From: Planctomycetota bacterium | GTDB taxonomy: Bacteria > Planctomycetota > GCA-002687715 > CAIWVZ01 | Direction of reading: 5' to 3' | Length of the DNA: 64,000 nt | NCBI GenBank assembly: GCA_044222185.1 | Contig: JBGANV010000002.1 | Location: 448,001-512,000, forward strand | In this document: positions 14,089 through 64,000 of the stretch, one piece after another | Layout of the letters: each line of letters starts with the position of its first letter | Numbering within the stretch: position 1 is the stretch's first letter | Made by a program: the position numbers and the translations under genes | Notes under the pieces: model-generated | Database searches by the model: none | What the model saw: only the letters and a program-made list of their open reading frames with translations | What the model was told of the DNA's origin: nothing

Positions 14089-16752
14089 ATGAGATGGAAG
14101 TTCCTGACGCCAGCGTTCCTGTCGTTGTTCGTGGCACCGCTCCAGGCGCAGATCCCACCGTCCGTCCAGCTGCAGGCGGCGCAGGCGTGGTCGGGAACCG
14201 CGGGAAGCGCGAACGCCGGGTGGTCCATCGCGTCCGGCGGTGGCGTGATCCTGACGGGATCGCCGGGTGGCAGTCCGCCGGGACCCGGCGTCAACTCCTG
14301 GACAGGCGGGCCGCCGCCCCTCGGCCCGACGGGCGCGGGGACCGTGCAAGTGCGCGCGAGCGTCGGCGGTCAGGTGCTCAACACGTTGCTCGGTGAAGCC
14401 GGGGGCGATCGCTTCGGCTTCGTCGTGTGCAACATCGGGGACGTGGATGGGGATACGGCCCCAGACTTCGCCATCGGAGCTCCGTTCGGCGGCGGAGGTA
14501 CGGGCCGCGTCTATGTCTATGCGAATGCCGACCTTCAGGGGCCTTTCACGCCTTCGCCCTTGTTCGTGTTGTCGGGGTTCCTTCCCAACGATCGCTTCGG
14601 GGTGTCGGTGTGTGGGATCGGTGACATCACCGGCGACGGCCTCGACGAGTTCGTCGTTGGCGCGCCCAAGGCTGGGCTCTTCCACGTGGGCCAGGCCTAC
14701 GTCTTCAGTCCCCAACCCGGAGGAGCTCAGCTTCTCGCCCCGGTGATGAATGGCGAGGCGGTCCAACCCGTGTTCGGCGGAAGTCTGGCGGCGGTGGGGG
14801 ATCTGGACGGTGACGGTCGCTCGGAGATCGCCATCGGCGCATCGGGATCGGGCGACACGCCACAGGCGACGACGGGAGCGGGTCGCGTGTACATCTTCCG
14901 GGGGTCGAACCGGACGTTGCTCGGCCAGATCAACGGACCCGTCACCGGAGGCCTGTTCGGGTACAGCATCTCTCGCCTCGGCGACGTCAGCGTCCCCGCT
15001 GACGGAATCCCCGACTTCGCGGTTGGAGCGCCCCGTTCGGGATCCCTGACCGCGGACGATTCGGGGCGGGTGTTCATCTACTCGGGCGCGACACGTGCCC
15101 TGATGAGAACCTTCAGTCAGGCGACACCGGGCGACTTGCTCGGCGCCGCGGTCGTCGGGACGGGGAACGCCGACGCGGACGCGCAGCTCGAGGTGGCCAT
15201 CGGGTCGCCGGGTTCGGGCCTCGACGGACGCCCCGGTCGCGTGCTCCTCGTTGGCGCCAGCGATGGCGTCGTGAAATCCACCGTGTCCGGCGAACGGCCG
15301 AACGACCGGATGGGAATGAGCATCGGCGTCCTCGACGACATCAATTTCGACGGTCGCCCGGAGCTGCTCGCGGGAAGCCCGAACCACGACATGGCGGAGA
15401 ACGTGGCCAATCGCATGGACGATGGCCGCGGGATGGTCTTCGTCTTGCCTCGAACCCTCTACGTCTCCGCCACCGCGGGGCCTGGCGGGAACGGCTCCTA
15501 CGCGACGCCTTACGCCTCGATCGGGATGGCGATTGCGTCGGCGCGCCACGGCGACACGATCTTCGTCGGGCCGGGAACCTACGCCGAATCGCTGTTTCTC
15601 AACGTCAACGTCCGCCTCGTGGGGGCGGGCACGACCCCGACGATCATCGATCCGGGCCCCAACGCACTGTTAGGCGCCCTCTCCGTCGGCATGGGCACCG
15701 ACGACACGTGCCTCCTGGAAGGGTTGACCTTCCGACAGGTCCTCGCCACGGCCGGCGGGGCGACGATCCGGAACTGCCGCATCGGGCGGCTGAACGTCGT
15801 GCGCGGTTACCTGGGATCGACCTACGTCGACCGCGTCGACATCGTTCGGCTCGATCATTGCACGATCGACACGTTGCACGTCGAGGGCCCGATCCTTCCA
15901 ACGTCGCTGGGAGACCCCTATCCGCTCCAGGTCCAGATGGACCACTGCAGCATGCGCCCCATGGGCACGGGTCTCGCGCCCATCTTCACGCGTCTCGCGG
16001 AACTGACCCTGACCAATTCCATCATCTGGGACCCGACGTCGTCGGTCGACATCCTCGCGCCGACGGGGAGCCCGGTGACGACGCCCGGCCCCGAGGGGTC
16101 CCTCGTCCGGTCGCGGTATTGCGTGATGGCCTACAACACCGTCGGGTTCGATCCGACCAACGTCGTGGGCGATCCGAAGTTCGCGAACGCGTCGGCGGGG
16201 GATCTTCGACTGCGCATCGACTCGCCCGCCATCGACGCCGGCGATCCCGCGGCCCCGTTGGACCCCGACGGATCGCGAAGCGACGTCGGCGCGTCGTACG
16301 CTCCTCCCGACCACCTGCCGGGGTCGGCGGACCGCGTCTACCTTGCGACGGCGCTGAACGCGTTGCCGCTCGGCGCGGCCGGGTCGGACATCCATCCCGC
16401 CCAGCCCGGCAACGCGGCGACCTTCTCGGTCTGGACGACGAACACGGCCCTCCTCGGAAGTCCCATGCTCGTCCTGGCGCAGGGATACCCGGCTCTCAAT
16501 TCGATTCCGCCGACGCCGGGGCTTCCCGCGTTCATCCGACTGAATCCCTACGTGCTGCCGTACTTCGTCCTCTTCGGCACGGCGTCGCCGATCGGGCTTC
16601 CGGTCCTGTCGGGGACGCCGACGACCTTCGCGCTGGGCATCCCGCCCGGGCTCGCGGGGATCACCATTCGGGTCCAGGCCTTCGCCGTGTCACCGCTGGC
16701 GCTGGCAGCCGGCATCGCCGCATCTTCGGCCCACGAGTTCGTCGTCAACTGA
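14089..16752 (+). CDS. Secreted FG-GAP (integrin-alpha propeller) + beta-helix protein with conserved C-terminal domain
   Basis: Signal peptide ending APLQA-Q; repeated FG...GDxDGDGxxDxAIGAP; YVSATAGPGGNGSYATPY..I..AI...GDTIFVGPGTY beta-helix cap; DLRLRIDSPAIDAG motif; C-terminal PPGLAG..IRVQ...SAHEFVVN. Confidence 0.85.
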   Translation: MRWKFLTPAFLSLFVAPLQAQIPPSVQLQAAQAWSGTAGSANAGWSIASGGGVILTGSPGGSPPGPGVNSWTGGPPPLGPTGAGTVQVRASVGGQVLNTLLGEAGGDRFGFVVCNIGDVDGDTAPDFAIGAPFGGGGTGRVYVYANADLQGPFTPSPLFVLSGFLPNDRFGVSVCGIGDITGDGLDEFVVGAPKAGLFHVGQAYVFSPQPGGAQLLAPVMNGEAVQPVFGGSLAAVGDLDGDGRSEIAIGASGSGDTPQATTGAGRVYIFRGSNRTLLGQINGPVTGGLFGYSISRLGDVSVPADGIPDFAVGAPRSGSLTADDSGRVFIYSGATRALMRTFSQATPGDLLGAAVVGTGNADADAQLEVAIGSPGSGLDGRPGRVLLVGASDGVVKSTVSGERPNDRMGMSIGVLDDINFDGRPELLAGSPNHDMAENVANRMDDGRGMVFVLPRTLYVSATAGPGGNGSYATPYASIGMAIASARHGDTIFVGPGTYAESLFLNVNVRLVGAGTTPTIIDPGPNALLGALSVGMGTDDTCLLEGLTFRQVLATAGGATIRNCRIGRLNVVRGYLGSTYVDRVDIVRLDHCTIDTLHVEGPILPTSLGDPYPLQVQMDHCSMRPMGTGLAPIFTRLAELTLTNSIIWDPTSSVDILAPTGSPVTTPGPEGSLVRSRYCVMAYNTVGFDPTNVVGDPKFANASAGDLRLRIDSPAIDAGDPAAPLDPDGSRSDVGASYAPPDHLPGSADRVYLATALNALPLGAAGSDIHPAQPGNAATFSVWTTNTALLGSPMLVLAQGYPALNSIPPTPGLPAFIRLNPYVLPYFVLFGTASPIGLPVLSGTPTTFALGIPPGLAGITIRVQAFAVSPLALAAGIAASSAHEFVVN

Positions 16753-16781
16753 CGTCCGGTCCGCCAATGGAGGGTGAAACG

Positions 16782-19700: not shown

Positions 19701-20585
19701 CGCCCGGACATCCTCGTCGGGGCCAGGGGTTACTCGCAAAGCCTGGGGAAGGTCTACGTGATCTCGGGTGCGACCGGCGCCGTGGTGCGCGTGGTGCAAG
19801 GAAGCGCGGTCGGTGACCGGTTCGGCTTTTCGCTCGCCTCCGGGATGGACGTGAACGCGGACGACTTCCCGGACTTCGTCGTCGGGGCGCCATTCGACGA
19901 CGACGTGGCGGTCGATGCCGGGGCCGTCCATCTGGTGTCTGGCTTCGACGGGCGGAGTCTCGCGAAGTACCGGGGATCGGCCGCGGCGGACAACATGGGC
20001 CTCTTCGTCGCGCTCGGCGGTGACGTCGACGGCGATGGGATCCCGGATGCGGCCGGTGGGTCGCCGTTCAACGATCAGAACGGCAGCAGTTCCGGGCGGG
20101 CCCAACTATTCCGTGGACCGCTCTCGCCGCGCTTCCCTGGCACCGCCGACGACTTCATCACCCTCGCCTCCGTGTCGAATGGTCCATTCCGCGTGGGAAG
20201 GGAGCGGGACGTCGTCAGTCTCGTCGCCGGCAACCTCCTCACGGTCTGGTGGGGTTCACCCACGAGCCGCTTCGACTTCCAGCCGTTCTTCCTCGCCGCG
20301 GAGAGCTTCGTGCCGGGCCAACGGCCGGCCGTACCCTCGTGCTATCCCGCGGCGCCGTGCTTCTCGGGCCTGCAGTTCGCACCGCTCCCGCAGAACGTCT
20401 TGATGGGACCCGTCGGTGGTCCGTTCGGCTTTCCGCTGCTCTTCCCGGGCGGCAATCAGGCGAACTTCCTCGTCCCACCCGGGCTCGGCGGGCTGAGGGT
20501 GCTGTTGCAGCCAGTGGTACTCTCGGGCCTCGCGCTCAACGGGTCCTACGCGGCGGCGAATGCGATCGTGCTCGATCTGAACTGA
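16782..20585 (+). CDS. Large secreted protein: two PPC-like beta-sandwich domains, many FG-GAP repeats, conserved C-terminal domain
   Basis: ATG at 16782 after GGAGGG; signal peptide ending CVMA-Q; two D.WF.(Y/F)...(I/F)DT...ACN...GxTYxxR(I/V) units; more than 10 FG-GAP/DxDGDG repeats. The ORF-track extension to 15708 overlaps the previous gene and is rejected. Confidence 0.85.
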   Translation: MNATCRIGCIVAACFLSCATCVMAQFEDCSPAATLVFPGINPGPPFGGDGTSFTNSGMSASVGFSSPCGATNDDGWFRYVATRTGTTVIDTATPLGFSVLALGDTVIDVHTACSQAAHLACNGGLVQSGGLKARVSFQATAGVTYYVRISSPSIAAADFYLTIAEHPAVVNDEPYAPLTLLAGLNPGGGAGNGGFYAMAGATPTPSLDAICPISPAVPVPPPPSNDVWFTFTATTTETTVFDTCEGVMPLGGAATLTLFSLGGATTSYVACNQDACPGCGGGARLTASLNAGTTYLLRVASAPVAPPVPFRVRVTGSGVSNGPAFSPFEGRTIVAPPAASHADVNWTVLGDANQDGTPDLVVGIPGDATNGWGAGRVVVLSGSNGAQLSAFANAPAGARLGASVCCVGDVGNDGVPDFAVSAPFLAGATPAVAGEVFIVSATGQQIGTWATFAKAPFAYGGVWGSGLAAVGDWDLDGVMNLCVTDWGEAGTSVRTPLYVIGDRNGDGVDDVARFRIPSGSASAFLATQSGTVESIPYLFLGSPWPVTIPNTLVGFPTQVCAAGRIDSDAISDYLLGIPGDNTTGSLAGKVVVVSGATHAFVTQFLGANAGDRFGTAVAAVGDFNFDGVPDFAIGAPYDDTNGNDAGSVTVVSSSTGQVIQKFFGDLPGDRFGWSLHRADAPARPGRTRLFASANPVLAQRAPYGRFLGSDRTVVQGDSANDECGYSVAIVPDADGDGRSDLIVGIRKEEVGSLTDAGVARLVSGSTGATIRQWNGTASFEQFGQTVVLVGDIDHDGTRDVAFGAPHASPAGSGSNSGQVKVVSGATGQLLRTFNGLAAGGWFGFDIADAGDVDGDGTADIVSGAQFHDLPGLTDAGVVRVHSGATGAVIHQWNGTVAGGKLGISLAGVGDVDGDGRADVAVGASSDGTFGTAAGRVFVFSGATGAMIRDLHPAGANAEFGYSLAPAGDLDRDGRPDILVGARGYSQSLGKVYVISGATGAVVRVVQGSAVGDRFGFSLASGMDVNADDFPDFVVGAPFDDDVAVDAGAVHLVSGFDGRSLAKYRGSAAADNMGLFVALGGDVDGDGIPDAAGGSPFNDQNGSSSGRAQLFRGPLSPRFPGTADDFITLASVSNGPFRVGRERDVVSLVAGNLLTVWWGSPTSRFDFQPFFLAAESFVPGQRPAVPSCYPAAPCFSGLQFAPLPQNVLMGPVGGPFGFPLLFPGGNQANFLVPPGLGGLRVLLQPVVLSGLALNGSYAAANAIVLDLN

Positions 20586-20591
20586 GGCCGG

Positions 20592-23348
20592 ATGGAATCG
20601 CAAGACGACCGCACGCTCCCCATGGGGTCCGACTCGGCGAAGGCCGAGGCGCGGCCAGCGCCGGGCGCGGTCACGTCCGAGGTCTTCGGCTCGGGGCGGT
20701 ACCGCGCCATCCGCGTCCTCGGGCGGGGTGCGCAGGGGACCGTCTACCTCGCCGAGGACACCGTCCTCAATCGACGCATCGCGTTGAAGGTCATCTCGCT
20801 CGGCGGAGAGATGTCCGCGGACGGCATCGCGCGCTTTCGCCGCGAGGCCGACCTCGCGGGCCGGTTGAGCCATCCCGGGATCTGCACCGTGCTGGACGTC
20901 GGTCTCGAGGCGAGACTTGCCTACATCGCCATGCAGTACGTCGAGGGCGAGACGCTCCAGCAACGTCTCGCCGTCGCGCGCTCGGACGCGACCACGCGGG
21001 AGGAACCGGGGTTGCACATCTCGAAGTTCGGGCCCGACGTTGCGGGCGACGATCCGAAGCGAGCTACCGCGTCCCGTCCCCGCGTCGACGTCGACGTCCA
21101 GAGGACGGTCCGGTTGATCGAGGACGTCGCGCGCGCGCTGCACGCCGCACACGAGGTCGGGATCGTTCACAGGGACATCAAGCCCGCCAACATCATGGTG
21201 GGGGCGGACGACAGGGCGGTCGTGCTGGATTTCGGTCTCGCGCGCGACGTCGTGGATGGCGAGACGATCACCCAGCCAGGGTTCCAGCTCGGAACGCCTT
21301 ATTACATGTCGCCGGAGCAACTCATGCTGGGACACGTGCGCCTCGACCGGCGCACCGACGTCTATTCCCTCGGCGTCACGCTGTACGAGTGTCTGACGCT
21401 CGACAGGCCTTTCGACGCGCCGACGCGTGAAGGGCTGTGGCAGGCGATCCAGCATCAGGACGCGACGGACGCGCGGCGGCGGAATCGCTCGATCTCGTCG
21501 GATCTGTGGAAGGTCGTCCAGGTCGCGATCGAGAAGGATCGCGATCGCCGATATCAGACCGCTCTGCAATTCGCCGACGACCTCCGTCGCGTGCGCCAGG
21601 GTGAGCCGATCCTCGCCCGCCCCGTGGGCCCGTTCGGCCGTCTCGTGCGGTGGACGCGCCGCCGGCCGGCGCTCGCCGCCGCGTGGCTGGGTGTCCTCAC
21701 ATCTCTCAGCGCGGGCCTCGCGACGTCGCTGACGCTTCTCGCGCAACGAACGCGGGAGACCAAGCGCGCGAACGAGATGACGGCCGTGGCGCTGTCCCGC
21801 CTCAGCGATTCCGAGAGCCTGGCCGACCTCGGCCTTGCGCGCCAACTCGTCATCGAGGAGCCGCGACTGTGGCCCGCGCACCCACGCCTCGTGCCCGCGA
21901 TCGACGATTGGATCCACCGCGCGCGCTCGCTCGTGGAGAGGCGGGATCGCTATCGAGCAGACTTGGCCCGGATCCGCGAGTCGGCCATCCCACTGGACCC
22001 GATCCGGCGGCAAGCCGAGCGGGAACGAGCCCAGCTGTTGCTCGCGACCAGCGCGGTGCGATCGAAGGAGGCCGAGACGATCGCGTCCGAGCGCGCCGCG
22101 ATCGCATCCGGGGCGCCGACGATCGACGTTCCGATCGGCAATCGCGACGCCGCGCTGCTCCAGCTCGACGCGTCGATCGAGGACTGTCGGATTGCCAGCG
22201 AACGCCTGCGCGCCGCCGCGGACGAGCCGTCCGAGTGGGCGTTCGCCGATCCGTCCGTCGCGTGGCGGCACGAAGTGCTCACGACGTTGGTCCGCGAGAT
22301 GTCCTCGATCGCGGACCCAGGTGACGGGGCCGGCCTTTTGCGGCGCGTGGAGGCGCGGCGCCGGATCGCCGCGGAGCTGCGACACGTCACGCTCGACGGG
22401 CCGGCCGAGGATTGGCGGCGCGCGATCGCGATGATCGGCGATCCGCGAGTCCTTCCGGTCTATGGCGGGCTCGAGATCACGCCGCAGCTCGGCCTCATCC
22501 CCGTCGGCGTGGACCCCGGGAGTCGTCTGTACGAGTTCGCGCACGTCGCGAGCGGCGCGCCGGCCGTGCGCGGACCCGACGGGCGACTCGTCGTTTCCCC
22601 CGACTCGGGGATCGTCCTGGTGCTCGTCCCCGGCGGCGAATTCAACATCGGCAGCCGGCTCCCCGCCGGCGAGTTCGTCGAAGGCGATCCGAACGTCGAT
22701 CCCGAACGGCAACCGTTCGACCTGCCGGTCCAGGGCGTCACCCTTCCAGCGTTCTTCGTTTCCAAGTGGGAGATGACACAAGCCCAATGGAAGCGACTGA
22801 CGGGAAGGAACCCGTCGTTGAATCGTGGGCTCGCCAACGGCCGCCTCTTCACGCTGACGTGTCCCGTCGACAACGTCAGCGGCGCGGAGGCGCTGGAGGT
22901 CGCGCGCATGGTCGATCTGGACCTTCCGTCGGAGGCCGAGTGGGAATTCGCCACGCGCGCGGGCACGCGGACGGTCTGGTACACGGGCGATCGCGTCGAA
23001 CTCGTCCAGGCGGCCGCCAACCTCATGGGCTCGACGGAGGGTGGGCCCGACCGGTTCGTGCAGATTGCGCCGATCGGGAGCTTCGCGCCGAACGCGTTCG
23101 GCCTGTACGACGTTTACGGGAACGTCCGCGAATGGTGCCGCGACATTCGCGATGCCGACACGAACGGAAATCGAGACGGCGAGGGGCGCTCGGCTCGCGC
23201 CGTCGGGTTTGGAGTGATGCGCGGAGGTGGATTCAGTGACTCGCCGGCGTCGGCGCGATCGGCCGCCCGGTACTGGCACCCCTTCGACTCCGCGTATTGC
23301 CCGGCGGGTGTGCGGCCGGTCCGCCGGCTCCGCCCCGATTCCGAGTAG
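20592..23348 (+). CDS. Ser/Thr protein kinase with C-terminal FGE-sulfatase (SUMF1/EgtB/PvdO) domain
   Basis: LGRGAQGTVY, IALK, HRDIKPAN, DFGLA, GTPYYMSPEQ, TM segment, then SKWEMTQAQW, LPSEAEWEFATRAG, PNAFGLYDVYGNVREWC, RGGGF. Confidence 0.93.
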   Translation: MESQDDRTLPMGSDSAKAEARPAPGAVTSEVFGSGRYRAIRVLGRGAQGTVYLAEDTVLNRRIALKVISLGGEMSADGIARFRREADLAGRLSHPGICTVLDVGLEARLAYIAMQYVEGETLQQRLAVARSDATTREEPGLHISKFGPDVAGDDPKRATASRPRVDVDVQRTVRLIEDVARALHAAHEVGIVHRDIKPANIMVGADDRAVVLDFGLARDVVDGETITQPGFQLGTPYYMSPEQLMLGHVRLDRRTDVYSLGVTLYECLTLDRPFDAPTREGLWQAIQHQDATDARRRNRSISSDLWKVVQVAIEKDRDRRYQTALQFADDLRRVRQGEPILARPVGPFGRLVRWTRRRPALAAAWLGVLTSLSAGLATSLTLLAQRTRETKRANEMTAVALSRLSDSESLADLGLARQLVIEEPRLWPAHPRLVPAIDDWIHRARSLVERRDRYRADLARIRESAIPLDPIRRQAERERAQLLLATSAVRSKEAETIASERAAIASGAPTIDVPIGNRDAALLQLDASIEDCRIASERLRAAADEPSEWAFADPSVAWRHEVLTTLVREMSSIADPGDGAGLLRRVEARRRIAAELRHVTLDGPAEDWRRAIAMIGDPRVLPVYGGLEITPQLGLIPVGVDPGSRLYEFAHVASGAPAVRGPDGRLVVSPDSGIVLVLVPGGEFNIGSRLPAGEFVEGDPNVDPERQPFDLPVQGVTLPAFFVSKWEMTQAQWKRLTGRNPSLNRGLANGRLFTLTCPVDNVSGAEALEVARMVDLDLPSEAEWEFATRAGTRTVWYTGDRVELVQAAANLMGSTEGGPDRFVQIAPIGSFAPNAFGLYDVYGNVREWCRDIRDADTNGNRDGEGRSARAVGFGVMRGGGFSDSPASARSAARYWHPFDSAYCPAGVRPVRRLRPDSE

Positions 23349-23471
23349 GGGCCGGACTGGGGTTTGGCCACGCCGCGACGCCCCGGCGGAGCCCTCGGCA
23401 GTGTGACGCGCCTCGGACTTGGCTCCTCCTTGCTCGCCGAACGCTCGCCGTCGTGGGATGATCTGCGCCTC

Positions 23472-24302: not shown

Positions 24303-24306
24303 TGCC

Positions 24307-31477: not shown

Positions 31478-33199
31478 TCAGAGCGTGATCTCGTGTGCGT
31501 CGGTCGCCGCGTAGATCCCGTTCGCCGCCCAGGGCGCGGCGCAGAACCCCTGGATGCGGAGCGTGTTCCCGGAGACACCCGGCGGAACTGGCGCATACAG
31601 CGCGATGCCCGCTGGCGTCAGGCCAGGCGCGGGGAACGGCAACGGGGTCAGCGAGCCCGCGATCGTGATCGAGACGTTCAGGTTCATCTGCACGCCGGGG
31701 ATGCCCAGGTTCGGCGGCGGTGCGCCCGTGGTGAAGACCTCAGCCAGGACCACGGGCTGCGCGCTCACGAACGTCCCGAGCGGCGAGTGCATGCGGATCG
31801 AAAGCTGTTGGCCCGTGGTCGCAGGATGCGACGGCGAGTTCGGATCCCCGGCACCTGACACCTGTGTGTAGAGGTGAAGGCGTTCACCGGTTCCGGGTAG
31901 CGTCGCATTGGGGACTTCGTCGACTCCCATGTCGACGACTCCAACGACGCGCGGGCCGCCGTCCAGGTCCGTCGCCGGGAGTCCGAAGGCGCCGCTCGTG
32001 CCCGCGTTGCGGCACGGGGACGACGGAGCGAGGTGGAAGTCGCCGCCGGCCGGGTCGATCCACGACGGATCCGTCGCGCGGTTCGTCGGGTTCGCCGCGA
32101 ACGCACCGGATCCGATGTCGGAGTACGTGACGTTGGGCGCCGCCGCACCGGCGAAGCCGAGGTCGGGACCCAGGTTTCCCCAGAGGATGCAGTTGGTGAC
32201 GGCGACGCCCGCGCCTGGGCTCGTGAACAACCCCGCGCCGCCCCCCGATGAGTTCCCGTAGAAGACGTTGTTGGTGAGCGCCGCGCTTCCGCCGTTGGCC
32301 GAAACCACGAAGGCCCCTCCGCCGAGCATCAGCGCCGAGTTGCCGGCGAACACGGAGCCCGAGAGCAGGAGGCCCGCGGCCTCGGAATAGAGTCCGCCGC
32401 CCAGTGTCCAGTTCAGATAGAAGCCCGCCGTGTTCTGGATGAATCGGCACCCGGTGACCGTCGGCGACGTGGCGGCGAGGAATGCGAGGCCGCCGCCGGG
32501 GCCGACGCCCGCGTTGTTCTGGAACGTGCAGCGCACGAGCGTGGGCGAACAGCCCGCGGAAGCTCCGAGGTTCCGGACCATCATGCCGCCACCGCCGGGG
32601 AGGTTGTTGTTGGTCCCGCCGTTGGCCGTGTTGCCGAGGATCGCGCACTCGTCGAAGAGCGCATAGCAGGTCCCCGAGCCGGTCGTCTCGACGTAGATCC
32701 CGCCGCCGGATTGGTCCGCGATGTTCCCGCTGATCGTGCAGTGCGAAACCGTGGGCGAAGCATTCGTCGACGCGCGACACTCCAGGCCACCTCCGCTCGC
32801 GGAGCTCGCGAAGTTCCCCGTGATCGTGCAGTTCATGATCGTCGGCGACGAGTTCTGGCAAGTCACTCCGCCACCGCCGCCGGCGATGCGGAAGCCATTC
32901 AGCACGGTCGTGGCGGCCTCGCCCGAAACGAACTGGACCACTCGCTGGCCCGGCGCGCCCAGGATCGTCGTCACGGAGGCGCCGCCCGAGCTTTGAACCG
33001 TGACGGCCTTTCCGAGGAAGTTGATGCCGCCCGAGTACGTCCCAGGCGCGACGAGGATCGTGGCGCCGGGCAAGGCTGCGCCGATGGCGGATTGGATCGT
33101 GGGGTACGTTCCGGGAACGTTCAGGGTCTGGGCAGCCGCCGTCCCGAGGACCAGCGATGCCGCGACGACGATGACGAGTGTCTTCACGTGGATCTCCAT
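31478..33199 (-). CDS. Secreted right-handed beta-helix protein with choice-of-anchor-Q-like module and conserved C-terminal domain
   Basis: Signal peptide ending TAAA-Q; VPGTYPTIQSAI...VAPGTY; repeated CTIxGN..GGG; DFHLAPSSPCRNAG..DLDGGPRVVGVVDMGVDE; ends PPGVSG..LRIQ...TDAHEITL. True start may be GTG at 33187. Confidence 0.85.
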   Translation of the reverse strand: MEIHVKTLVIVVAASLVLGTAAAQTLNVPGTYPTIQSAIGAALPGATILVAPGTYSGGINFLGKAVTVQSSGGASVTTILGAPGQRVVQFVSGEAATTVLNGFRIAGGGGGVTCQNSSPTIMNCTITGNFASSASGGGLECRASTNASPTVSHCTISGNIADQSGGGIYVETTGSGTCYALFDECAILGNTANGGTNNNLPGGGGMMVRNLGASAGCSPTLVRCTFQNNAGVGPGGGLAFLAATSPTVTGCRFIQNTAGFYLNWTLGGGLYSEAAGLLLSGSVFAGNSALMLGGGAFVVSANGGSAALTNNVFYGNSSGGGAGLFTSPGAGVAVTNCILWGNLGPDLGFAGAAAPNVTYSDIGSGAFAANPTNRATDPSWIDPAGGDFHLAPSSPCRNAGTSGAFGLPATDLDGGPRVVGVVDMGVDEVPNATLPGTGERLHLYTQVSGAGDPNSPSHPATTGQQLSIRMHSPLGTFVSAQPVVLAEVFTTGAPPPNLGIPGVQMNLNVSITIAGSLTPLPFPAPGLTPAGIALYAPVPPGVSGNTLRIQGFCAAPWAANGIYAATDAHEITL

Positions 33200-52286: not shown

Positions 52287-52341
52287 CGTCCGGCATGATA
52301 GGTCGCGCCGCGTCATCGCCAGCGCCAGTCGGATTGCCTGG

Positions 52342-55300
52342 TCACGGCGCCTCGAAGAGCCGGGCGAATCCCGGGCGAGCACGGAGCGGAGCCAGCTGCG
52401 GATCGAACGTCCGGATCGACTCCACGGCGCATCGCAGATCTCGCAGCTTCTCCCTGACGACGTCGGTATCCGAGCCCGCGGCCCTCCGATCGACGAGAGT
52501 CTTCTCCATGTCGCGGATCGCGGCGCGCAGGATGCTCACCTCCATCGCGACGCAGCGTTCGCCGACCAGAGCGGCATCCTGATCCGGTTTCGAGCCCGCG
52601 GCGAGGACTCGTGAGGCCGCGATGCTTCCCGCGTGGAAGAACGCGCGGAGGGTGACGGGAAGTCGTGGCTCCTCCGCCCCGTCGCGGTCGAGCACCACCT
52701 TGAAGTGGGGGAGCGACTCGGCCGGCCGCTCGCCGACCGCGGCGCGCATGGCGACGATCGCGTGATCGGTCGCGGAGGCGGGCGACTCCTTCGCGAGGGC
52801 CCGGGTTCGAGCCAGGACCTCGACGAGGGCGTCGATGCGCCCATCGCTCGTGAATTTCTTGATCGCGGCATCCGAGGCATTTCGATCGGCGGCCGCGTCC
52901 GCTGCGAGGGGCGTTGCCTCGTCCAGCCGATCGGCGCGCCACAGGCAATGCGCGAGCTGGATCCGGGCACGCAGGCACTCGGCGTGAATCTCCTGGATCG
53001 CGTCCTTGGGCGTCGACGGCGCCTCCTCGAGTCCCGTGAGCTCCTGAACCGCGGCGCGCAGCGCGATCTCGGCAGCGGCGAGGTGCCCCATCTCCATCTC
53101 CTCACTTCCTTGCAGGGAGAGGGCGAACCCCACACGCGCGATCGCGCCAAGTCGCCGCGCCTCTGGTTCGATCGAGGCGGCGCGACGTCGCTCCTCGACT
53201 GCCCGTGCCAGCAGCGCGGACGCCTGGTCGAAGTGCCCCGCCTCATGCGCCGCGCGCGCGAGGTCGCGCGTCGCCGTCGCCGCGTCGGCCGCGGCGTTCG
53301 CGTCGGCCGGCGCCAGTTGCGCCGCCGCGCCGTGTGCGGCCAGCGCGCCCTCGGCATGACGCTCGGCCTCATCGACTCGGCCGAGTTCGCGTGCGCATTC
53401 CGCGGCGTCGGCCAACACCCAGCCAAGCCGCGTGGCGAACGCAGCGGACTTGGGGACTTCCGCGCAAAGACGGCGAAGAGCCTCGATGGGTGCTGCGAGC
53501 GTCTCGAGCGCGGCGGCAACGTCGCCCCGCTCACCCTGGACCCGCGCGACGGTTCGCTGCGAGAGCGCACGATCGAGGCGCCACGCCGTGTTGCGAGGGT
53601 CGAGGCGTCCCAGCCGCTCGCGGAATTCGCAGACCTCCTGGAACGAGCGGAAGGCTTCGTCTCGCTTTCCCGACTGCTCCTGGAGAACGCCGAGCACGTT
53701 CAGCGCGTGCCCCATCTGATAGAGGCGGCGTGAGTTCACCGGATCTTCGAAGAGAAGCCTCCGCAGCACGGCGACCGCCTGCTCCGACGACTTCAACGCC
53801 TCGGCCGGCTGGTCGCTTTCACGAAGGGCAAGCGCCAGCCCGTGGCTGCCCGTGGCCAGGAGCTCGGCCCACTCGCGATTCTCCGGCTCCGCTTCCGTCA
53901 ACGCCTGGAAGATCGATAGCCCTTCGCGTCGCGCGCGGATGGCGGCCGGTGGGTCACCGTTGACGCGGAGGGATTCCCCCAGGTTTTGAAGCGTGATGCC
54001 GAGCTCACGTCGCCACTGCGGTCGCGAGTCCGTGGCCGACAAGGTCCGCCATCTCTCCGCAGCCTCGCGGTATTGGACGAGTGCTTCCTCGTTCCGGCGC
54101 GCTGCCTTGAGGGTGTTGCCGTACATCGTGAGGCCGGCGGCGAGGAGGCGCGCGTGTTCAGGTTCCCGAGGGTCGATCTCCAGGAGCCGGCGTCGGATCG
54201 TGAGCGACTTTTCGGTCGTCGCCACGGCCGCGGCGTTCTCGCCGCGGATCATCTGCGCTCCAGCGATTGCATTCAGGGTCGACGCCAACTCGCGCATCGC
54301 GGCGACGTCGTCCGGACGGCGCTCGACGAGAGTCTGCAGGATCGACGCGGACTCATCGAACTTGCGCGTGGCTTCGGCGCTGTCACCCTCCGCGGCGACG
54401 ACCTCGCCGAGGTTCCGCAGGAGAAGCGAACGACGCAGCGCGTCCGGCACGTCATCCAGGTCGAGCGGGCGATCGGCGTAGTAATCGCCGGCCTTGCGCG
54501 CGACCTTCGCGAGCAGTTCGAGCTTGCCAACTTCCGTGAGGCGGCTCTTCAGGTCGACGAGCATGAACGAAATGAGGTCTTCGGCGTTGCCTCGGATTCG
54601 TCTCGCTTCGCCCAGTGCGGCGGTCTCGCCAGCGAGGGCTTCCTGCGTGCGGCTCAACGAATGGAGGCTGACGATGAGTCCCGCGGCGAGCGCCAGGAAT
54701 GCCACGCACAAGCTGGCGGCGATGGCGGGGTTGCGCTGCGTCCAGCGCTGCAGACGTACGGCGACCGTGGCGGGCCTCGCGCGAACCGGTTCGAACGAGC
54801 GCGCGCGGCGCAGATCCTCGGCGAACGCCGCCGCGTCCTGATATCGGCGCGCCGGGTTCTTGTCGAGCGCCGTGAGGATGACCGCAGAGAGCTCGGGAGT
54901 GATCGCCGGGTTCAGGCGCCGCGGATCTTCGGGTTCCGTCGTGCGAATGGCGCGGAGGAGCGCTTCGAGCGTCGCACCCTCGAAGGGACGACGGAGCGAT
55001 GTCATCTCGTAGAGCGTGACGCCCATCGACCAGACGTCGGTGCGCCGATCGATCTCGGTCGCACCAGCGGCCTGCTCGGGCGACATGTATGCCGGCGTGC
55101 CGACGAACGTCCCCGTGCCGGTGAGCGACGCATCGGTGCTCTGGGCGTCGCGAGCGAGGCCGAAGTCGAGGATCACCGGCTGACCCGACTTCTCGAGCAT
55201 GAGGTTGCCCGGCTTGATGTCGCGATGGACGAGCCCGGCCTCATGCGCGACGTGGAGCGCGCGGGCGGCGTTCTCGACGATCTCGACTTCGGCGAAGACG

Positions 55301-55830
55301 CTCTGTCGTCGCTGGCTCGTCCCCGTGGACGTCGTGCCGGCGGTGGCCGTCGTCTCGCGGGCCTCGCGGATGCGATCGGCGACCGTTCGGCCTGCCACGA
55401 GGCGCATGGCGATGAACGGCACTCCGTCGACGGCACCGGCTTCGTACACCGTGCAGATCCCAGGGTGATCCAGTCGCGCGGCGGCCGCAGCCTCACGCTC
55501 GAAACGAAGACGCGTCCACGCATCGGCGGCGTAGGCCCCGGTCAGGAGCTTCAACGCGACACGCCGGCCGAGGCGCAAGTCGTTCGCCTCATACACGACA
55601 CCTTGTCCACCGCGACCGAGTTCGCGAAGCAGTGCGTAGGAGCCGAAGCGGGCGGATGGGGATGCCTGCGCCGAGACGGGATGCGGTGAGTGCGTGCCGT
55701 CGACCTCTGCGTGCCCGACGACGAACGTGACGTCCGGCGAGGTCGGCGGAGTCGGGTCGGGCAGCCGCGGCGCTCCGTCGCCGGGGCGTCCGGGGACGGT
55801 GCCGTCCTCATCCGGCGTCGCAGTGCACAT
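52342..55830 (-). CDS. Ser/Thr protein kinase with TM segment and TPR repeats
   Basis: LGRGGQGVVY, VALK, HRDIKPGN, DFGLA, GTPAYMSPEQ, TDVWSMG; long TPR array with DP.N..W...LA units. Confidence 0.93.
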   Translation of the reverse strand: MCTATPDEDGTVPGRPGDGAPRLPDPTPPTSPDVTFVVGHAEVDGTHSPHPVSAQASPSARFGSYALLRELGRGGQGVVYEANDLRLGRRVALKLLTGAYAADAWTRLRFEREAAAAARLDHPGICTVYEAGAVDGVPFIAMRLVAGRTVADRIREARETTATAGTTSTGTSQRRQSVFAEVEIVENAARALHVAHEAGLVHRDIKPGNLMLEKSGQPVILDFGLARDAQSTDASLTGTGTFVGTPAYMSPEQAAGATEIDRRTDVWSMGVTLYEMTSLRRPFEGATLEALLRAIRTTEPEDPRRLNPAITPELSAVILTALDKNPARRYQDAAAFAEDLRRARSFEPVRARPATVAVRLQRWTQRNPAIAASLCVAFLALAAGLIVSLHSLSRTQEALAGETAALGEARRIRGNAEDLISFMLVDLKSRLTEVGKLELLAKVARKAGDYYADRPLDLDDVPDALRRSLLLRNLGEVVAAEGDSAEATRKFDESASILQTLVERRPDDVAAMRELASTLNAIAGAQMIRGENAAAVATTEKSLTIRRRLLEIDPREPEHARLLAAGLTMYGNTLKAARRNEEALVQYREAAERWRTLSATDSRPQWRRELGITLQNLGESLRVNGDPPAAIRARREGLSIFQALTEAEPENREWAELLATGSHGLALALRESDQPAEALKSSEQAVAVLRRLLFEDPVNSRRLYQMGHALNVLGVLQEQSGKRDEAFRSFQEVCEFRERLGRLDPRNTAWRLDRALSQRTVARVQGERGDVAAALETLAAPIEALRRLCAEVPKSAAFATRLGWVLADAAECARELGRVDEAERHAEGALAAHGAAAQLAPADANAAADAATATRDLARAAHEAGHFDQASALLARAVEERRRAASIEPEARRLGAIARVGFALSLQGSEEMEMGHLAAAEIALRAAVQELTGLEEAPSTPKDAIQEIHAECLRARIQLAHCLWRADRLDEATPLAADAAADRNASDAAIKKFTSDGRIDALVEVLARTRALAKESPASATDHAIVAMRAAVGERPAESLPHFKVVLDRDGAEEPRLPVTLRAFFHAGSIAASRVLAAGSKPDQDAALVGERCVAMEVSILRAAIRDMEKTLVDRRAAGSDTDVVREKLRDLRCAVESIRTFDPQLAPLRARPGFARLFEAP

Positions 55831-55906
55831 GGATGCAGGATACCCCGACGAGCGGGTTCGCCGAAACCCGCGGCACGGCGCGGCTCATGGCGCACTCACA
55901 CGCGTC

Positions 55907-57265: not shown

Positions 57266-57396
57266 GGCGGAGAGTCTACGCGGCGAGGTGCCGTCACGGC
57301 GGCATTCCGCGAGGTCAGTTTGCTTCCGGTGCCGCCCGAGCTCCGCTCCGATCTCGGCGGTGGCGCGACCGTCGAGGCGACTGCGGTCGATCCATC

Positions 57397-60338
57397 TCAG
57401 AACACCAGCTTGAACGGAGTGTTGGAATGCCCCGTGACCTGCAGGGTCTGCGGGTCGTAGGTCACCGTCACGGCGCGGAGCGGAAGACGCAGGAACTGCG
57501 GCGGCACGCCCCCTGAGCCGAGCACGAACTGCGACGCCCCGCCCCCGTCGAACGTGCCGACGAACGGGGGCGCCTGGAAGAGGAACTCGGTCAGGAGTTC
57601 GTTGGGACCGACCTCGAGCCCATTCCATGCGATCGTCGGGTACTCGGCTCCGAACGACATCGCCGTGAAGTACGCCGCGCCGGGTACGCCGAGCGAGTTC
57701 GCGATGCGAATCGACCCCGAACCCGACGGCTGCGTGAGCGCCACCGAGCAGGCGAGCACGTCGATCGAGACGGGTTGAGTCGTCGTCGATCCGCACGGGT
57801 TCGTGACGACGACGTCATAGGAGCCGGCGTCACCCTGGACGACCGACGCGATGGTCAACGTGGCCGAGGTTGCGCCCGCGATGGGCACCTGATTCTTGCG
57901 CCACTGATACGTGAGCACTGGCGCTCCGGCTGCGTCGACCGATCGGCTCGCCGGATGGTTGAGGTTGAACGGCGCCGCCGACGGGATCTTGAGGATCGCG
58001 GGCGTGCCCGGTGCGGTCCAGCGCGCGATGGCATTGGCGGGCGCGCCGGAGACTTCGGTGAAGCCGCCGGCGACGAAGAGTGACGGCCCGGTGCCATCGT
58101 CGAACGGTGCGAGGGCGCGGACGCGTTGCCCGACGGACGCGACGACCCCGGCCGCGAGCGGCTCCCACGCCGAGCCGGTCAGCCGGGCCACGTGGTTGAG
58201 TCCGCGGTTGTTGCTCGACGTTGCGCTGCCTCCGGCATGAAGCGCGGGCCCGCGGCCGTCGTCGTAGACCGCCAGGGCGTCGATCGTGCTCTCGGCCGAT
58301 GGAGGCCCGGGGGAGTACCAGCCGTCACCCACGCTCTGCCACGCTCCGTTGCGCACCGGGCGATCCGCGCAGCGGGCGTCCCGCCGGCGGTCTGGAATCC
58401 GCCCGCCACGTGGAGCCCCGGGCCGCTCCCGTCATCGAAGACCCTCATCGCGCGCACCGCCGGGATCGAGCTGGTGCTGAAGATGCCGCTGCCGACCGCG
58501 CTCATCGACGAACCGTTCCAGCGCGCGATGTTCAACGCGGGGACGCCGCCCGCGACACCGAACGAACCGCCCACGTAGAGCTCCGGCCCGGATCCGTCGT
58601 CGAACACGGCCATCGTCGACACCGTCGTCCAGAGGCTCGCGCCGGAGAAGCCGGAACCGACCGGCTGCCACGCATCGCCCGTCCAAACCGCCATGCGCTC
58701 GGCCGGGACTCCACCGGCGATCGAGAACTGACCGCCAGCGTACAGCTTCGGTCCGGACCCGGAGTCGTAGACCGCGAGCGACATCACCGGGCCGTTGAAT
58801 CCGCCGCCGACGCTCGACCAGGACGCTCCGTTCCATCGCGCGATCCCGGCCGCGGGCACGCCCCCCATCGTCGAAAACGAACCGCCCGCATAGAGCTTCA
58901 GACCCGAGCCGTCATCGAACGCCACGAGACAGTTCACGCCCGCTTGATTGGACTGCGTGTACGGGCCGACTCCACTCCCGAGCGGTCGCCAATTTCTGCC
59001 GTCCCAGCTCGCCACTCCGAAAGCGGGCGAGTCACCAGCGTTGTCGAAGCGCCCGCCCGCGTACAGAAGCGGACCCGCTCCGAAGTCGGCGACCGCCAAC
59101 GCGTCGATCGTGCCGATGACTCCCCCCGTCACGCGCGTGACCACGCCGGCCGAGACCCGGGACAACTCGCACGGGGCGTGGAACGGAGTGAGGCTCGGTT
59201 GCCAGCCGACCGTGTAGAACGCGGGGCCGCGCCCGTCGTCGAAGGCCGCCATCGCAAATGGAAAATGCGCGAGGGTCAGGGCACCAGGCGGAGTCAGCCA
59301 TGAGGTCCCGTTCCAGCTCAGCAGATGTGCGCCGTCGAGCGCTGCGACATCCCCGCCGGCGTAGAGGCGTGTGGACGTTCCGTCATTGAACGACAGCGGA
59401 GTTCGGACGACCGGGGACCCGGAGGCGACGGGCGTGCCCATGGCGCTCCATCCCGTCGCGTTCCAACGTGCGACACTTCGGGCCTGGATTCCGCCGGCGC
59501 TGGTGAACGATCCGCCTGCCGAGAGCGCAGGTCCCGTGCCGTCGTCGTGAGTTGCCAGTGCATTCACGGCAACGTTCGTGCCCACGCCCAGGCTGCTCCA
59601 CGCAGACCCGTTCCATCGCGCGAGGTTCGAGGTGTTCACCGCTCCGGCGCTGTCGAAGAGGCCACCAGCAAAGAGGGCCGGCCCGGAGCCATCGTCGAAC
59701 ACCGCGAGGGCCCTGACGTCGCCATGCGAAGCGTTGGAGGTCAATCCGCCACCGACTGCGGACCAACTGGTCCCGTTCCACTTCGCGATGGAGTTGCAGG
59801 TCACGCCTCCGGCCGTGGTGAACGAGCCCCCGGCGTAGAGGGCCGCGCCGGTGCCGTCGTCGAACACGGCGAGGGTGCGCACCCAGCCGCCCGAGATGCC
59901 GGAGCCCAGGGGCGCGAAGGTCGTGCCGTTCCACCGAGCGACGTTCGCCGCCGCCACGCCACCCGCCGACCCGAAGCTCCCGCCGACGAACAGCGAAGAC
60001 CCTGACCCGTCATCGTGACTTGCGAGCGCCAGCACTGGGCCGCCGACACCCGCTGTCGTGCTGCCTGTGGGAACCACGGGGGAGAATGCTCCACCGTCGA
60101 ACCTCACGAGACACGGCGACGCGACGGGGCCGGCGCCCGTGAAATCGCCACCGATGTAGAGATTCGTGCTCGCTCCATCGGACCACGTCGCCATGGCGAG
60201 GCCCTGCCACTCGAGCGCGCCGACGGACCCCACGGCCGTCGACCAGTTCTGACCGCACTGGGCCCAGGCCCTGCAGGTCGCGAGCGCCGTGACGACGGCA
60301 AGACGAAACATGTGGGTGAAGTCACGGGGCTCGCCCAT
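57397..60338 (-). pseudogene. Secreted 14-repeat beta-propeller + Ig-like + C-terminal domain protein, split by a single-base frameshift at ~58354 (pseudogene or sequence error)
   Basis: AGGAG RBS and signal peptide ending AWA-Q; repeats V.AL.VFDDG.G..LYAGG.F..AGG....IARWNG continue across ORFs 58179..60452 and 57397..58356; adding one G restores RIARWRNGAWQ; then TYQWRKN...DAGSYDVVVTNPCG Ig motif. Confidence 0.85.
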
Positions 60339-61235: not shown

Positions 61236-64000
61236 GTGGAGAAGGCACTACGTGCGGCGTTCGTGGCGGCGTGGATTCTTGCTTCGTTCGCTCCGGCTCA
61301 GACGATCTGGTGGGTGCAGCCTGGCGGCACCAGCGCCGGGAGCGGGACGCAGACCGATCCATTCAACCAGATCCAGCTCGCGATCAACGCGTCGACCAAC
61401 GGAGACACGATCCGTGCGATGCCCGGAGTGTATTTCGAGCACATCAACTACATCGGTCGCAGCGTCACCATCGAGAGTACCGACGGTGCCTTCTACACGA
61501 CGATCGATGGTCAAGGGTCGGGCCCGGTGGTTCGGATCCAGAACGGCGAGTCCAACGCCGTGCTGGATGGATTCACGGTGACGAATGGGCACAACAGCCA
61601 TGGGGCGGGGATCTACTGCTACGGGTCGAACGTGACCGTTCGCAATTGCATCGTGCGCGACAACGGACCTTACGGTGAGGGTCCCGGTCTTTATGCCTAC
61701 GGCGGGTCGACGCGAATCACCGATACCAGCTTCGAGAACAACGATTCCGGTGGGAATGTGGGCGGAGCCATCGCGGGGTATTACGGGCCCATGACCGTCG
61801 AGCGGTCGACGTTCATCAACAATCGCTGCCCCAACGCTTACGGCGGCGCGATCTACTCCAACTCGGAGTTCGTCGACGTTCGTGACTGCACGTTCGTCGG
61901 AAACCAAGCGTACTACGGTGGGGCGATCTGGCTCTATGCGTCCATGAACTCGCTTCTCCGCGACAACCTCTTCGAACTGAACACGGCTGCGACCGGCGGA
62001 GCGATCCTGCTGACAAATGGGCAAGTCAACACGATCGAACGGTGCCGATTCCGTCAGAACACTGCGTCCTCGGATGGCGGCGCCATCTCCATAAGCGGAT
62101 CAATTCAATCCATATCGAAATCGGATATGTCTGGTAACACCGCTGGTGGCAGCGGTGGTGCGATCTACAACCAAGGAGTCATTTCCGTGATGTCGGGCAC
62201 CCGCATCCTCGACAACCACGCCGGTGGAAATGGCGGTGGAATCTACAACTGTAGCGGCTGCCTTTACATGTTTCGCTCATGCGCCGTCGCCCGCAATACT
62301 GCGAGCGGTGTCGGTGGCGGCTTGTTCTGGTGCGGCGGGTGTTATTCGTCGGCGTTCACCGGGATCACATTCGTCGGTAACACGGCTTCGTCGGGTGGGG
62401 CCACGCATATCAACTGCTGTTCGGCTCCCCCGTTCGCCAACAGCGTATTCTGGTCGGACATGCCGAGTGAATTCGGCGGCTACATCCCGTGCTTGACCAA
62501 TTGTGCCGTGCAGGGAGGAGCCGGATGTGGCTCCAGCTTGATGGCGTTGGATCCTGAGTTCGTGAATGCACCCTTCGACTTCCACCTCCGGTCGACGTCG
62601 CCCCTGATCGGCGCCGGCGCCAACGCCTACGTGGCTTCGGGCGAAACCGACATCGACGGTGGGCCGCGCATCAACGGCGCGACGGTGGACATCGGCGCGG
62701 ACGAATACAACGCGATCGTGCTCTCGGCACCGGCCGTGGCGCAGATCGGGTCGCCCCTTTCGTTCCAGTTCGCCACGTACCCGGCGCAGCCGGGCGCGGC
62801 GTATCTCGTGGACGTGTCCGTGACGGGCGACACCCCAGGCATCCAGTTGCCGGGAAGCCTCGGCACGATCCCGCTCAACCCCCCGTTCCTCTTCCTGTCC
62901 TATGGCGCATACGCACCCGGGGTCTTCGTCAACTTCCTGGCGGCGCTCGACGGCGGCGGGGTCGGCGGGCCCGTGCTGAACATTCCAGATGAGCCCCTGC
63001 TCATCGGGACGGTGCTTTACGGCGCGGGGTTGACCCTCGATTTCGTCGGCCCGACGGCGCCCGTCGGCACTCTCAGCAATGGCGTCCAGACCGTCGTCAA
63101 GGATCACCTGCCGATCATCCAGAGTGTGGTGCCCAACACTGCGCCAGTGAGCGGCAACGCCCCGATCACGCTCCATGGAAGCTACTTCCAACCGGGCGCA
63201 ACCGTCACCGTTGGAGGCGTCGCACCTCAAAACGTGACGGTCGTGGATGCCAACACCATCACGTTCACGGCGAACGGCCAGGGCCAGGGACCGCGAGACG
63301 TGGTGGTGTTCAACCCCGACCAGCAGGTTCACGTCCTGGCGGGCGGGCTCACCTACATTCCCGATCTGGTCCTCTATCAGGTGAATCCGTCGGTGACCGC
63401 GCCCGGAAACCCGGTCACGCTCAGCGGTGACGGATTCCAGTCGGCGCTGACTCTCGTCGTTGGTGGCGTCCCTGTGATTCCGACGAACGTCACGCAGTCG
63501 TCCGTCGACTTCGCCATGCCCATCGGATCCGCGTGCGACGGGTCGCTCGTCGTCCACAACCCGAGCAACCAGACGCAGTCGATCGCGTTCAATCCCTCGC
63601 CGCAGATCACGTCGACGTCGGGAACCACGATTCCGGCGGGAACCGGCGGGGCGTTCACCATCTACGGAAACCAGTTCCACCCCGGCACGGTCGTCACGCT
63701 GGGCGGCCAGCCCGCGATGGTCACGAACAGCTCGACGGGTTTCATTTCCGCCACGGCCCCGCCCGGCCCGGCGGGATTCGCGCCGATCGTCGTCACGTCG
63801 GCGACCGGCTGCACGGCGACGACGAACTTCTACTACCTGGGAAGTCCGCCCATCCTGACCTCCGTGACGTTGCCCAACGGGCCGATCGCCGGCGGTACGG
63901 CCATCACGCTCACGGGGGCCAACTTCCTTCCCGGGGCGAGCGTCACCATCGGAGGCGCCGCCGCGACCGCGGTCGTCGTCGTGAGCCCGACGACGATCAC
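61236..64000 (+). CDS. Secreted beta-helix (Pmp-like GGAI/FxxN repeats) + choice-of-anchor-Q-like + IPT/TIG repeat protein, 3'-truncated
   Basis: Not in the ORF track because it lacks a stop. GTG at 61236 after GGGAG reads MEKALRAAFVAAWILASFAPA-QTIWWVQPG...; FENN..GGAI, FINN..GGAIY, FVGN..GGAIW, FRQN..GGAI; DFHLRSTSPLIGAG..DIDGGPR..VDIGADE; IPT-like P.I.SV.P...GG..ITL.G.NF..GA.V.IGG; frame stays open to 64000. Confidence 0.88.
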   Translation, partial: MEKALRAAFVAAWILASFAPAQTIWWVQPGGTSAGSGTQTDPFNQIQLAINASTNGDTIRAMPGVYFEHINYIGRSVTIESTDGAFYTTIDGQGSGPVVRIQNGESNAVLDGFTVTNGHNSHGAGIYCYGSNVTVRNCIVRDNGPYGEGPGLYAYGGSTRITDTSFENNDSGGNVGGAIAGYYGPMTVERSTFINNRCPNAYGGAIYSNSEFVDVRDCTFVGNQAYYGGAIWLYASMNSLLRDNLFELNTAATGGAILLTNGQVNTIERCRFRQNTASSDGGAISISGSIQSISKSDMSGNTAGGSGGAIYNQGVISVMSGTRILDNHAGGNGGGIYNCSGCLYMFRSCAVARNTASGVGGGLFWCGGCYSSAFTGITFVGNTASSGGATHINCCSAPPFANSVFWSDMPSEFGGYIPCLTNCAVQGGAGCGSSLMALDPEFVNAPFDFHLRSTSPLIGAGANAYVASGETDIDGGPRINGATVDIGADEYNAIVLSAPAVAQIGSPLSFQFATYPAQPGAAYLVDVSVTGDTPGIQLPGSLGTIPLNPPFLFLSYGAYAPGVFVNFLAALDGGGVGGPVLNIPDEPLLIGTVLYGAGLTLDFVGPTAPVGTLSNGVQTVVKDHLPIIQSVVPNTAPVSGNAPITLHGSYFQPGATVTVGGVAPQNVTVVDANTITFTANGQGQGPRDVVVFNPDQQVHVLAGGLTYIPDLVLYQVNPSVTAPGNPVTLSGDGFQSALTLVVGGVPVIPTNVTQSSVDFAMPIGSACDGSLVVHNPSNQTQSIAFNPSPQITSTSGTTIPAGTGGAFTIYGNQFHPGTVVTLGGQPAMVTNSSTGFISATAPPGPAGFAPIVVTSATGCTATTNFYYLGSPPILTSVTLPNGPIAGGTAITLTGANFLPGASVTIGGAAATAVVVVSPTTI

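Follow-up and report, generated by a model that had tools for sequence, protein, structure and literature searches.

A very large, apparently undescribed family of tail domains that may serve as a general attachment module of exported proteins in Planctomycetota

The window analysed here is a stretch of 64,000 nucleotides (positions 448,001 to 512,000 of contig JBGANV010000002.1, assembly GCA_044222185.1; C6:448001-512000 in our numbering) from a Planctomycetota genome of 7.08 Mb that is 94% complete (hereafter G000). An earlier note, made from the letters of the window, had pointed to a C-terminal domain shared by at least eight secreted proteins and had proposed a lineage-specific export or surface-attachment signal analogous to the C-terminal domain (CTD) of type IX secretion system (T9SS) cargo. 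Our results indicate that this tail domain is a real, very large and apparently undescribed family that seems to behave like a general attachment or sorting tail; they support the view that it is lineage-restricted, is carried by exported proteins and has no name in the libraries searched. The reading that we prefer, and to which we give a probability of about one half, is that of an uncleaved, non-covalent surface tether on proteins probably exported by the type II secretion system (T2SS).

Abundance and position of the domain in the source genome

When a profile built from the tails was run across the genome, its matches were mostly C-terminal and mostly in proteins with a signal peptide, as the earlier proposal implied. 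At least 376 domain-bearing open reading frames (ORFs) were found, and in 343 of them the domain ends within 35 residues of the stop codon. The family takes up 372 of the 4,946 genes called by our own gene caller, roughly one in every thirteen, and accounts for 11.6% of coding residues. With higher sensitivity the profiles matched 382 genes at an E-value threshold of 1e-5 and 391 at 1e-2, while decoys gave 0 matches. Because many more look-alike tails are visible, all these counts are lower bounds. A profile search for longer proteins gave 6 matches, too few to be informative. A signal-peptide heuristic of our own (not SignalP) was positive for 346 of 366 domain genes and for 1,797 of the 4,161 remaining genes. 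At the likely cleavage site, 329 domain genes have Gln after a small residue; Gln after the cut also occurs in 726 of the 4,161 others, and the glutaminyl cyclase family PF05096 was not found in G000.

Among 391 domain proteins the domain is C-terminal in 317, N-terminal in 27, internal in 25 and solo in 22, the last number being inflated by miscalled starts and fragments. More than 35 residues follow the domain in 33 of the 376 ORFs, so that placement is not strictly C-terminal as it is in T9SS cargo. Two proteins apparently consist of three tandem copies (two scored by the profile, the third recognized by eye), and four conserved standalone paralogs are made of a signal peptide and the domain only. 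These four (L149-L152; G000 C1:2248095, C6:570979, C10:62931 and C6:761579) are dispersed in the genome, are 67-86% identical to the first of them and have in common an invariant WQEYAPWDN stretch that is absent from other members of the family.

The passengers are diverse: 344 of them fell into 124 clusters, with 95 singletons. Those of 60 representatives from outside G000 include FG-GAP, kelch, RCC1, DUF7948/SBBP, S8, M10 and trypsin domains, and many have no Pfam match; lectin-like domains are also found among passengers. One gingipain-like G000 protein (Propeptide_C25 followed by Peptidase_C25) ends in the domain, in the form called subtype C below. Over their whole length the domain proteins are poor in Lys (0.6% versus 2.9%) and Glu (1.6% versus 5.5%). 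At G000 C14:150280-153954 the frame of a Ser/Thr kinase that has a membrane helix stays open into what appears to be a second signal peptide and a domain protein; this ORF is a genuine fusion or else two genes joined by read-through.

Subtypes and unity of the family

Pairwise comparison with phmmer divided the eight tails of the window into three groups, here named by gene start: A (14089, 16782 and 33199), B (33509, 40108, 43027 and 45139) and C (57397, minus strand). The best E-value across groups was 5e-4, so that by pairwise alignment the eight tails do not form one readily aligned family; they are linked when profiles are compared with profiles, since hhalign ties A to B (96%, E 3e-9) and B to C (87%, E 4e-6), with no link between A and C. 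Iterated against all six-frame ORFs, profile A converged at 24 members and profile C at 60; profile B stood at 212 and was slowly rising. At E 1e-5 the matches of the three profiles had zero overlap, and there were zero matches on reversed ORFs. Four more subtypes, D, E, G and K, came from seeding with further tails (hhalign B-D 98%, B-E 96%, B-G 91%, C-K 98% and E-G 98%), making seven subtypes that differ in their inserts. Members of subtype B are 11-53% identical to the reference member, and close paralog pairs mostly stay within a subtype (185 pairs of the same subtype, 9 of different subtypes).

Two candidates were set aside. Family F, carried by 16 exported G000 proteins (e.g. C16:148767-151175 and C2:298108-299688), is an unrelated C-terminal domain about 125 aa in length; it was tried as a subtype and left out because hhalign gave no link. 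In two of its proteins a weak copy of the tail domain is present internally as well. P0036, an apparent match with 11 copies, is an unrelated repeat protein.

The standalone and tandem forms raise the possibility of a self-assembling coat or lattice (S-layer-like or fimbria-like) built of such copies, with the passengers as fused decorations. The mutual identity of the standalone paralogs (67-86%), the apparent triple-tandem proteins, the low charge and the high content of Pro, Gly and hydrophobic residues would suit such a coat. However, the divergence of subtype B and the existence of seven subtypes with different inserts are hard to fit to a single lattice, and we regard this explanation as quite improbable.

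Known families, fold and composition

Comparison with the sorting domains of Pfam and NCBIfam, which had been proposed as a check, gave no shared match for 72 domains (40 of subtype B and 32 of subtypes A, C and D). TIGR04183, PF18962, TIGR04131 and FlgD_ig in particular matched 0 of the 40 and 0 of the 32 at E up to 0.1; the same libraries did detect a T9SS-type tail at locus L096 (see below). The sole library match under E 0.01, MTHFR_2 in a single member, was judged spurious. A sequence search of the PDB found no match (best E 0.64), and the ESM Atlas returned only clusters without a name, in which the commonest phylum was Planctomycetota. No description of the domain was found in the literature, which was covered mainly as titles and abstract openings of openly accessible papers. 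The main text of a paper on carbohydrate-active enzymes and signal peptides of planctomycetes (PMC11131199) does not mention T9SS or dockerins, and the sections consulted of a preprint on Saltatorellota (bioRxiv 10.1101/817700) name neither secretion nor an S-layer.

The domain is about 115-145 aa long across subtypes. AlphaFold models of subtypes B and C are confident beta-sandwiches of immunoglobulin (Ig)/fibronectin type III (FN3)-like fold (predicted local distance difference test, pLDDT, 94.8 and 95.6), in which the insert after the third strand is an extra beta-hairpin in B and a helix in C. The best fold matches by VIA-align were TEP1r (2pn5; Z 9.1, root-mean-square deviation 3.3, 103 residues aligned), 7s62 (Z 8.9) and CD109 (Z 8.8), and for subtype C 7khf (Z 7.9, root-mean-square deviation 2.8, 90 aligned). 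Macroglobulin, Ig and FN3 domains thus have a fold in common with the tail domain (Z 9.1 or lower), but with Z near background for such folds and identities of at most 18% this speaks neither for a common family nor for a common function. Though the models are Ig-like, no T9SS chain was among the best 50 VIA-align matches; this does not argue against a fold in common with T9SS tails. Foldseek found nothing at E up to 0.001; its top matches were ML-domain lipid-binding proteins (E about 2e-3, TM 0.40-0.47), which is a hint at lipid binding at most. Lys makes up 0.1-0.5% of the domain and large hydrophobic residues 32-35%. In subtype B there are two cysteine positions, of which 69 of 216 members have both, 122 neither and 25 a single one; being mostly paired or absent, these cysteines are consistent with a disulfide formed outside the cytoplasm.

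Distribution across genomes

Subtype B is present in 60 of 301 sampled Planctomycetota genomes. Up to 14 matches were scored per genome; 55 of these 60 have six or more, and the remaining 5 have one. Subtypes C (22/301) and A (27/301) occur only inside the 60. Presence is all-or-none in the larger families listed (3/3, 5/5, 6/6, 7/7 and 6/6 versus 0/15, 0/15, 0/10 and 0/10). Genomes scored as negative may carry subtypes that profiles based on G000 miss. In a wide library reduced to 50% identity, 28,185 representatives match the domain with E up to 0.001; in 148 of 149 true top matches it reaches to no more than 10 residues from the C-terminus. Relatives of the 33509 protein (n = 19) are mostly from Planctomycetota. 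The one genome searched from outside the phylum (G301) gave no match, in a search that had no positive control.

Exchange of tails on homologous passengers

Homologs of the 33509 passenger were compared at 49 loci. At 27 of these (the window gene included) the tail matches our profiles and at 13 it is similar by eye, below threshold; other tails are dockerin-like (3 loci), T9SS-type (1) or of another Ig type (3), and two loci have no tail. No Pfam tail was found among the best 120 of 514 matches to the passenger. The dockerin-like tail of L135 scores 24.6 with Dockerin_1 (cut-off 22.9); its identity to the other two is 40-43%. The T9SS-type tail is that of L096, in a record titled Gemmatimonadota, and scores 24.9 with TIGR04183 (cut-off 23) and 39.1 with FlgD_ig (cut-off 27). 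These exchanges support the view that the domain is interchangeable with T9SS-type and dockerin-like tails on homologous passengers, as judged from sequence. At L131, L136 and L141, in other families, the same passenger type carries a third, Ig-type tail, which is NPCBM_assoc-like in two of them.

Matches to the dockerin-like tail were found in 20 of the 301 genomes and it is expanded in 15 of them (G023, G056, G081, G106, G128, G147, G166, G183, G200, G216, G232, G248, G263, G278 and G293). None of these 15 is among the 60 genomes with the tail domain, two of which have a single dockerin-like match. In the expanded genomes this tail is Cys-rich, with 17/17 scored and 123-444 candidates at first look; two of the three examples at L133-L135 have no Pfam or NCBIfam match. 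The Cys-rich dockerin-like tail is possibly a second undescribed tail system.

Exchange also bears on the idea that the domain is an accessory ligand-binding module, similar to a carbohydrate-binding module, that fixes released enzymes and adhesins to a substrate, matrix or prey outside the cell and takes no part in sorting or cell attachment, or else that it serves retention in the periplasm. A generic Ig/FN3 fold, tolerance of position and passengers such as S8, M10 and trypsin-type proteases and lectin-like domains would all be compatible with binding of this kind. Against this, the domain is present in single copy per protein across hundreds of unrelated passengers, its presence is all-or-none by family and it takes the slot of known anchors on homologous passengers. 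We therefore hold ligand binding or periplasmic retention to be improbable.

Search for secretion and anchoring machinery

The machinery that the earlier note had placed outside the window was looked for in the whole genome. SprA (TIGR04189, PF14349) had no match in G000, but none was obtained in control genomes either and the G000 assembly is 94% complete; no SprA-sized barrel is prominent in the list of G000 barrels. The T9SS tail model likewise gave no G000 match, in a search for which no positive control responded. Exosortase (PF09721) was not found in G000, the control having responded in 1 of 14 genomes. True PorU or PorV was not detected in G000, where homologs lie below cut-off only; the PorU-like C25 protease scores 150 bits (cut-off 420). 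This protease and a FadL/PorV-like barrel encoded between two domain genes were tried as partners with single-protein queries. Among 40 domain-rich and 35 domain-free genomes, the former was present in 20 and 11 respectively, the latter in 3 and 6, and both were rejected because they do not co-occur with the domain. GspD-like secretins do not discriminate either. Within the order, 12 of 14 genomes retain the PorU-like C25 protease (L098:6849-9524; G000 C1:2008849) at almost its full length, although a T9SS core was not detected.

With a narrow profile made of five sequences, a family of large Gly-rich lipoproteins, a possible surface scaffold, was matched in 15 of 40 domain-rich genomes and in 1 of the 40 others. 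Its members in G000 (C2:256992-264075, C1:1252332, C8:71635 and C6:360265) are about 800-880 aa long with a common C-terminal region, and the family occurs in 13 of 14 genomes of the order. G000 also encodes a T2SS-type operon with GspE and GspF above cut-off, and two GspD-like proteins and one GspG-like protein just below.

Surface tether or export signal

By computation, the exported proteins combine a Sec-type signal peptide with the domain, which in most of them is C-terminal. In the mechanism that we propose, the protein would fold in the periplasm, as the paired cysteines of subtype B suggest, and would cross the outer membrane most simply via the encoded T2SS. The domain, uncleaved, would then bind an outer-membrane lipid, a glycan or a scaffold non-covalently and so keep the protein on the surface, the likely contact being the subtype-specific hydrophobic insert after the third strand (hairpin in B, helix in C). 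An Ig/FN3-like module of about 115-145 aa would in this way serve one set of uncultured Planctomycetota lineages as the general means of attaching their exported proteins.

The chief competing explanation is an export signal for a dedicated outer-membrane translocon, removed after passage or exchanged for an anchor like the T9SS type A CTD, with machinery that is undescribed or has diverged beyond detection. The domain is C-terminal in about 91% of cases, has an Ig-like fold and substitutes for a T9SS-type tail on a homologous passenger. It also ends a gingipain-like protein, whose Bacteroidota counterpart RgpB has a tail cleaved by PorU, and its copies exceed the 157 T9SS cargoes quoted for C. 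hutchinsonii (both from PMC11611037, a review of the T9SS). Only 1 of the 27 passengers with an N-terminal domain has a homolog with a C-terminal one, which, together with the strong bias towards the C-terminus, keeps the export signal alive. The results for exosortase, the PorU-like protease and the FadL/PorV-like barrel speak against it, as does, within the limit of its unresponsive controls, the negative SprA search, and so do the N-terminal, internal, tandem-only and standalone forms: tandem-only and standalone forms are not expected of a tag that is cut off and discarded. On account of the N-terminal, tandem and standalone forms we favour the uncleaved tether and consider a cleaved export signal doubtful. 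Of the earlier proposal of an export or surface signal like the T9SS CTD, the restricted, exported, terminally biased and swappable nature of the domain has held, whereas behaviour as a cleaved signal has so far gained no support; 'surface attachment' appears to fit the data better than 'export signal'.

Several points weigh against the tether. The domain lies at the C-terminus in 343 of 376 ORFs and in 148 of the 149 best-scoring representatives, which is the placement expected of a terminal export signal, and the 1/27 count implies that position is not freely swapped, so that the 27 N-terminal cases may be special. The mutual exclusion of dockerin-like tail and tail domain follows families, i.e. 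non-independent samples, and is a pattern rather than a statistical test. All 80 genomes tested have GspD-like secretins, whether or not they carry the domain, and the T2SS is thus available, not implicated. The weak idea of lipid binding draws on composition and on low-scoring Foldseek matches to the models. Surface location, passage through the T2SS, absence of cleavage and binding by the insert are all predicted features, and the partner is putative.

A further, tentative possibility makes the domain an address tag within an undescribed sorting and display system that has its own receptor or translocon. Such a system would handle 7-10% of genes in several lineages of uncultured Planctomycetota, and the seven or more subtypes would be parallel codes for different destinations or partners.

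Domain genes of the window and their neighbours

Table 1. Genes of the window in which the tail domain was located, with positions in the window
Product	Gene	Strand	Domain and other features
FG-GAP protein, exported, 887 aa	14089..16752	+	C-terminal subtype A domain 16315-16740, 113 bits
FG-GAP protein, exported, 1267 aa	16782..20585	+	C-terminal subtype A domain 20133-20573, 116 bits
Beta-helix protein, exported, 573 aa	31478..33199	-	Weak choice-of-anchor-Q; C-terminal subtype A domain 31487-31900, 165 bits
Unknown-family protein, exported, 556 aa	33509..35179	+	Subtype B domain 34772-35155, 59 bits
FG-GAP_3 protein, ~870 aa	40108..42738 (start possibly 40138)	+	C-terminal subtype B domain 42364-42732, 81 bits
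Exported protein without Pfam match, 328 aa	43027..44013	+	Subtype B domain 43621-44007, 67 bits
Exported protein without Pfam match, 340 aa	44117..45139	-	Subtype B domain 44129-44476, 70 bits
Exported beta-propeller and Ig protein	57397..60338	-	Frameshift near 58356; subtype C domain in downstream frame, profile core 57469-57723, 78 bits
Exported beta-helix protein, 1115 aa, extends beyond window end	61236..64000	+	Choice-of-anchor-Q; internal subtype D domain 62745-63059, 78 bits; NF058597 repeats

Of the eight genes said to end in the domain, seven do so on our profiles (59-165 bits), and the gene starting at 60338 on the minus strand is frameshifted before its tail: its ORF leaves the frame near 58356 and the subtype C tail sits in 57397-58356. 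In run X7 of a different study, one contig (depth 5) has an extra base at 58353, whereas run X1, a possible source of the window, agrees with the window at this site. For the seven, the description of a Pro/Gly-rich C-terminal domain (about 120-145 aa) was borne out, and so was that of unrelated passengers, for which Pfam gives FG-GAP, beta-helix or nothing. The domain in general also lacks a transmembrane helix or basic tail, with a mean of 0.5 Lys plus Arg in the last 10 residues. The end motif that had been proposed failed to generalize, with a regular-expression paraphrase matching 6 of 391 domain proteins. The choice-of-anchor-Q module that had been reported to precede the domain in three proteins was recovered in the 61236 protein (28.8 bits, cut-off 25) and weakly in the 33199 protein (22.1); in the 14089 protein hidden Markov models do not find it and the likeness is by eye only. 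In the 61236 protein, whose domain set the end of the region originally delimited, the domain covers residues 504-608 of 1115 and is not terminal.

Large Ser/Thr kinase genes are interspersed with the domain genes (20592-23348, plus strand, and 52342-55830, minus strand), the first with a C-terminal PvdO/GldK-like domain. At 9915-13877 (minus strand) a single ORF of 1321 aa combines MurG-like (207 bits, cut-off 250) and MurJ (268, cut-off 236) parts, with a weak match to CpcE-type repeats in its C-terminal part; the adjoining gene is MraY-like by eye.

Significance and comparison with known systems

A profile of the domain would predict the surface proteome of lineages known almost solely from metagenomes. 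The swaps suggest that each Planctomycetota lineage took up one general tail for the same cargo, and their pattern makes protein display in this phylum a testable question. If a dedicated receptor or translocon does exist, the domain would belong to a new secretion or anchoring system.

PEP-CTERM/exosortase signals resemble the tail domain in having hundreds of copies per genome, in being restricted to lineages and in following choice-of-anchor modules (NF041518). The tail domain differs in being folded and in lacking their motif, transmembrane helix and basic tail, and no exosortase was found in G000.

The T9SS type A CTD (TIGR04183 and PF18962, with a likeness to FlgD_ig, PF13860) is likewise a terminal Ig-like domain on many unrelated proteins with signal peptides, and at L096 it takes the place of the tail domain on a homologous passenger. 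The signal peptide expected of T9SS cargo is present (346/366, by our heuristic), but the tail domain has no sequence match to the CTD, is longer (115-145 aa versus a model of 72 positions) and is not strictly terminal, and T9SS core genes were not detected in G000.

Dockerins are small calcium-binding helical modules that act as non-covalent, uncleaved anchors, and EF-hand matches were seen in the dockerin-like tails. The tail domain, in contrast, is a beta-sandwich without a calcium-binding repeat motif and has no match to PF00404; no cohesin-like partner for it was identified, and the dockerin-like profile found nothing in G000. With dockerin-type tails (PF00404) it nevertheless has in common that, within Planctomycetota, one tail extends over the whole exported repertoire, and that the two are swapped on one passenger family.

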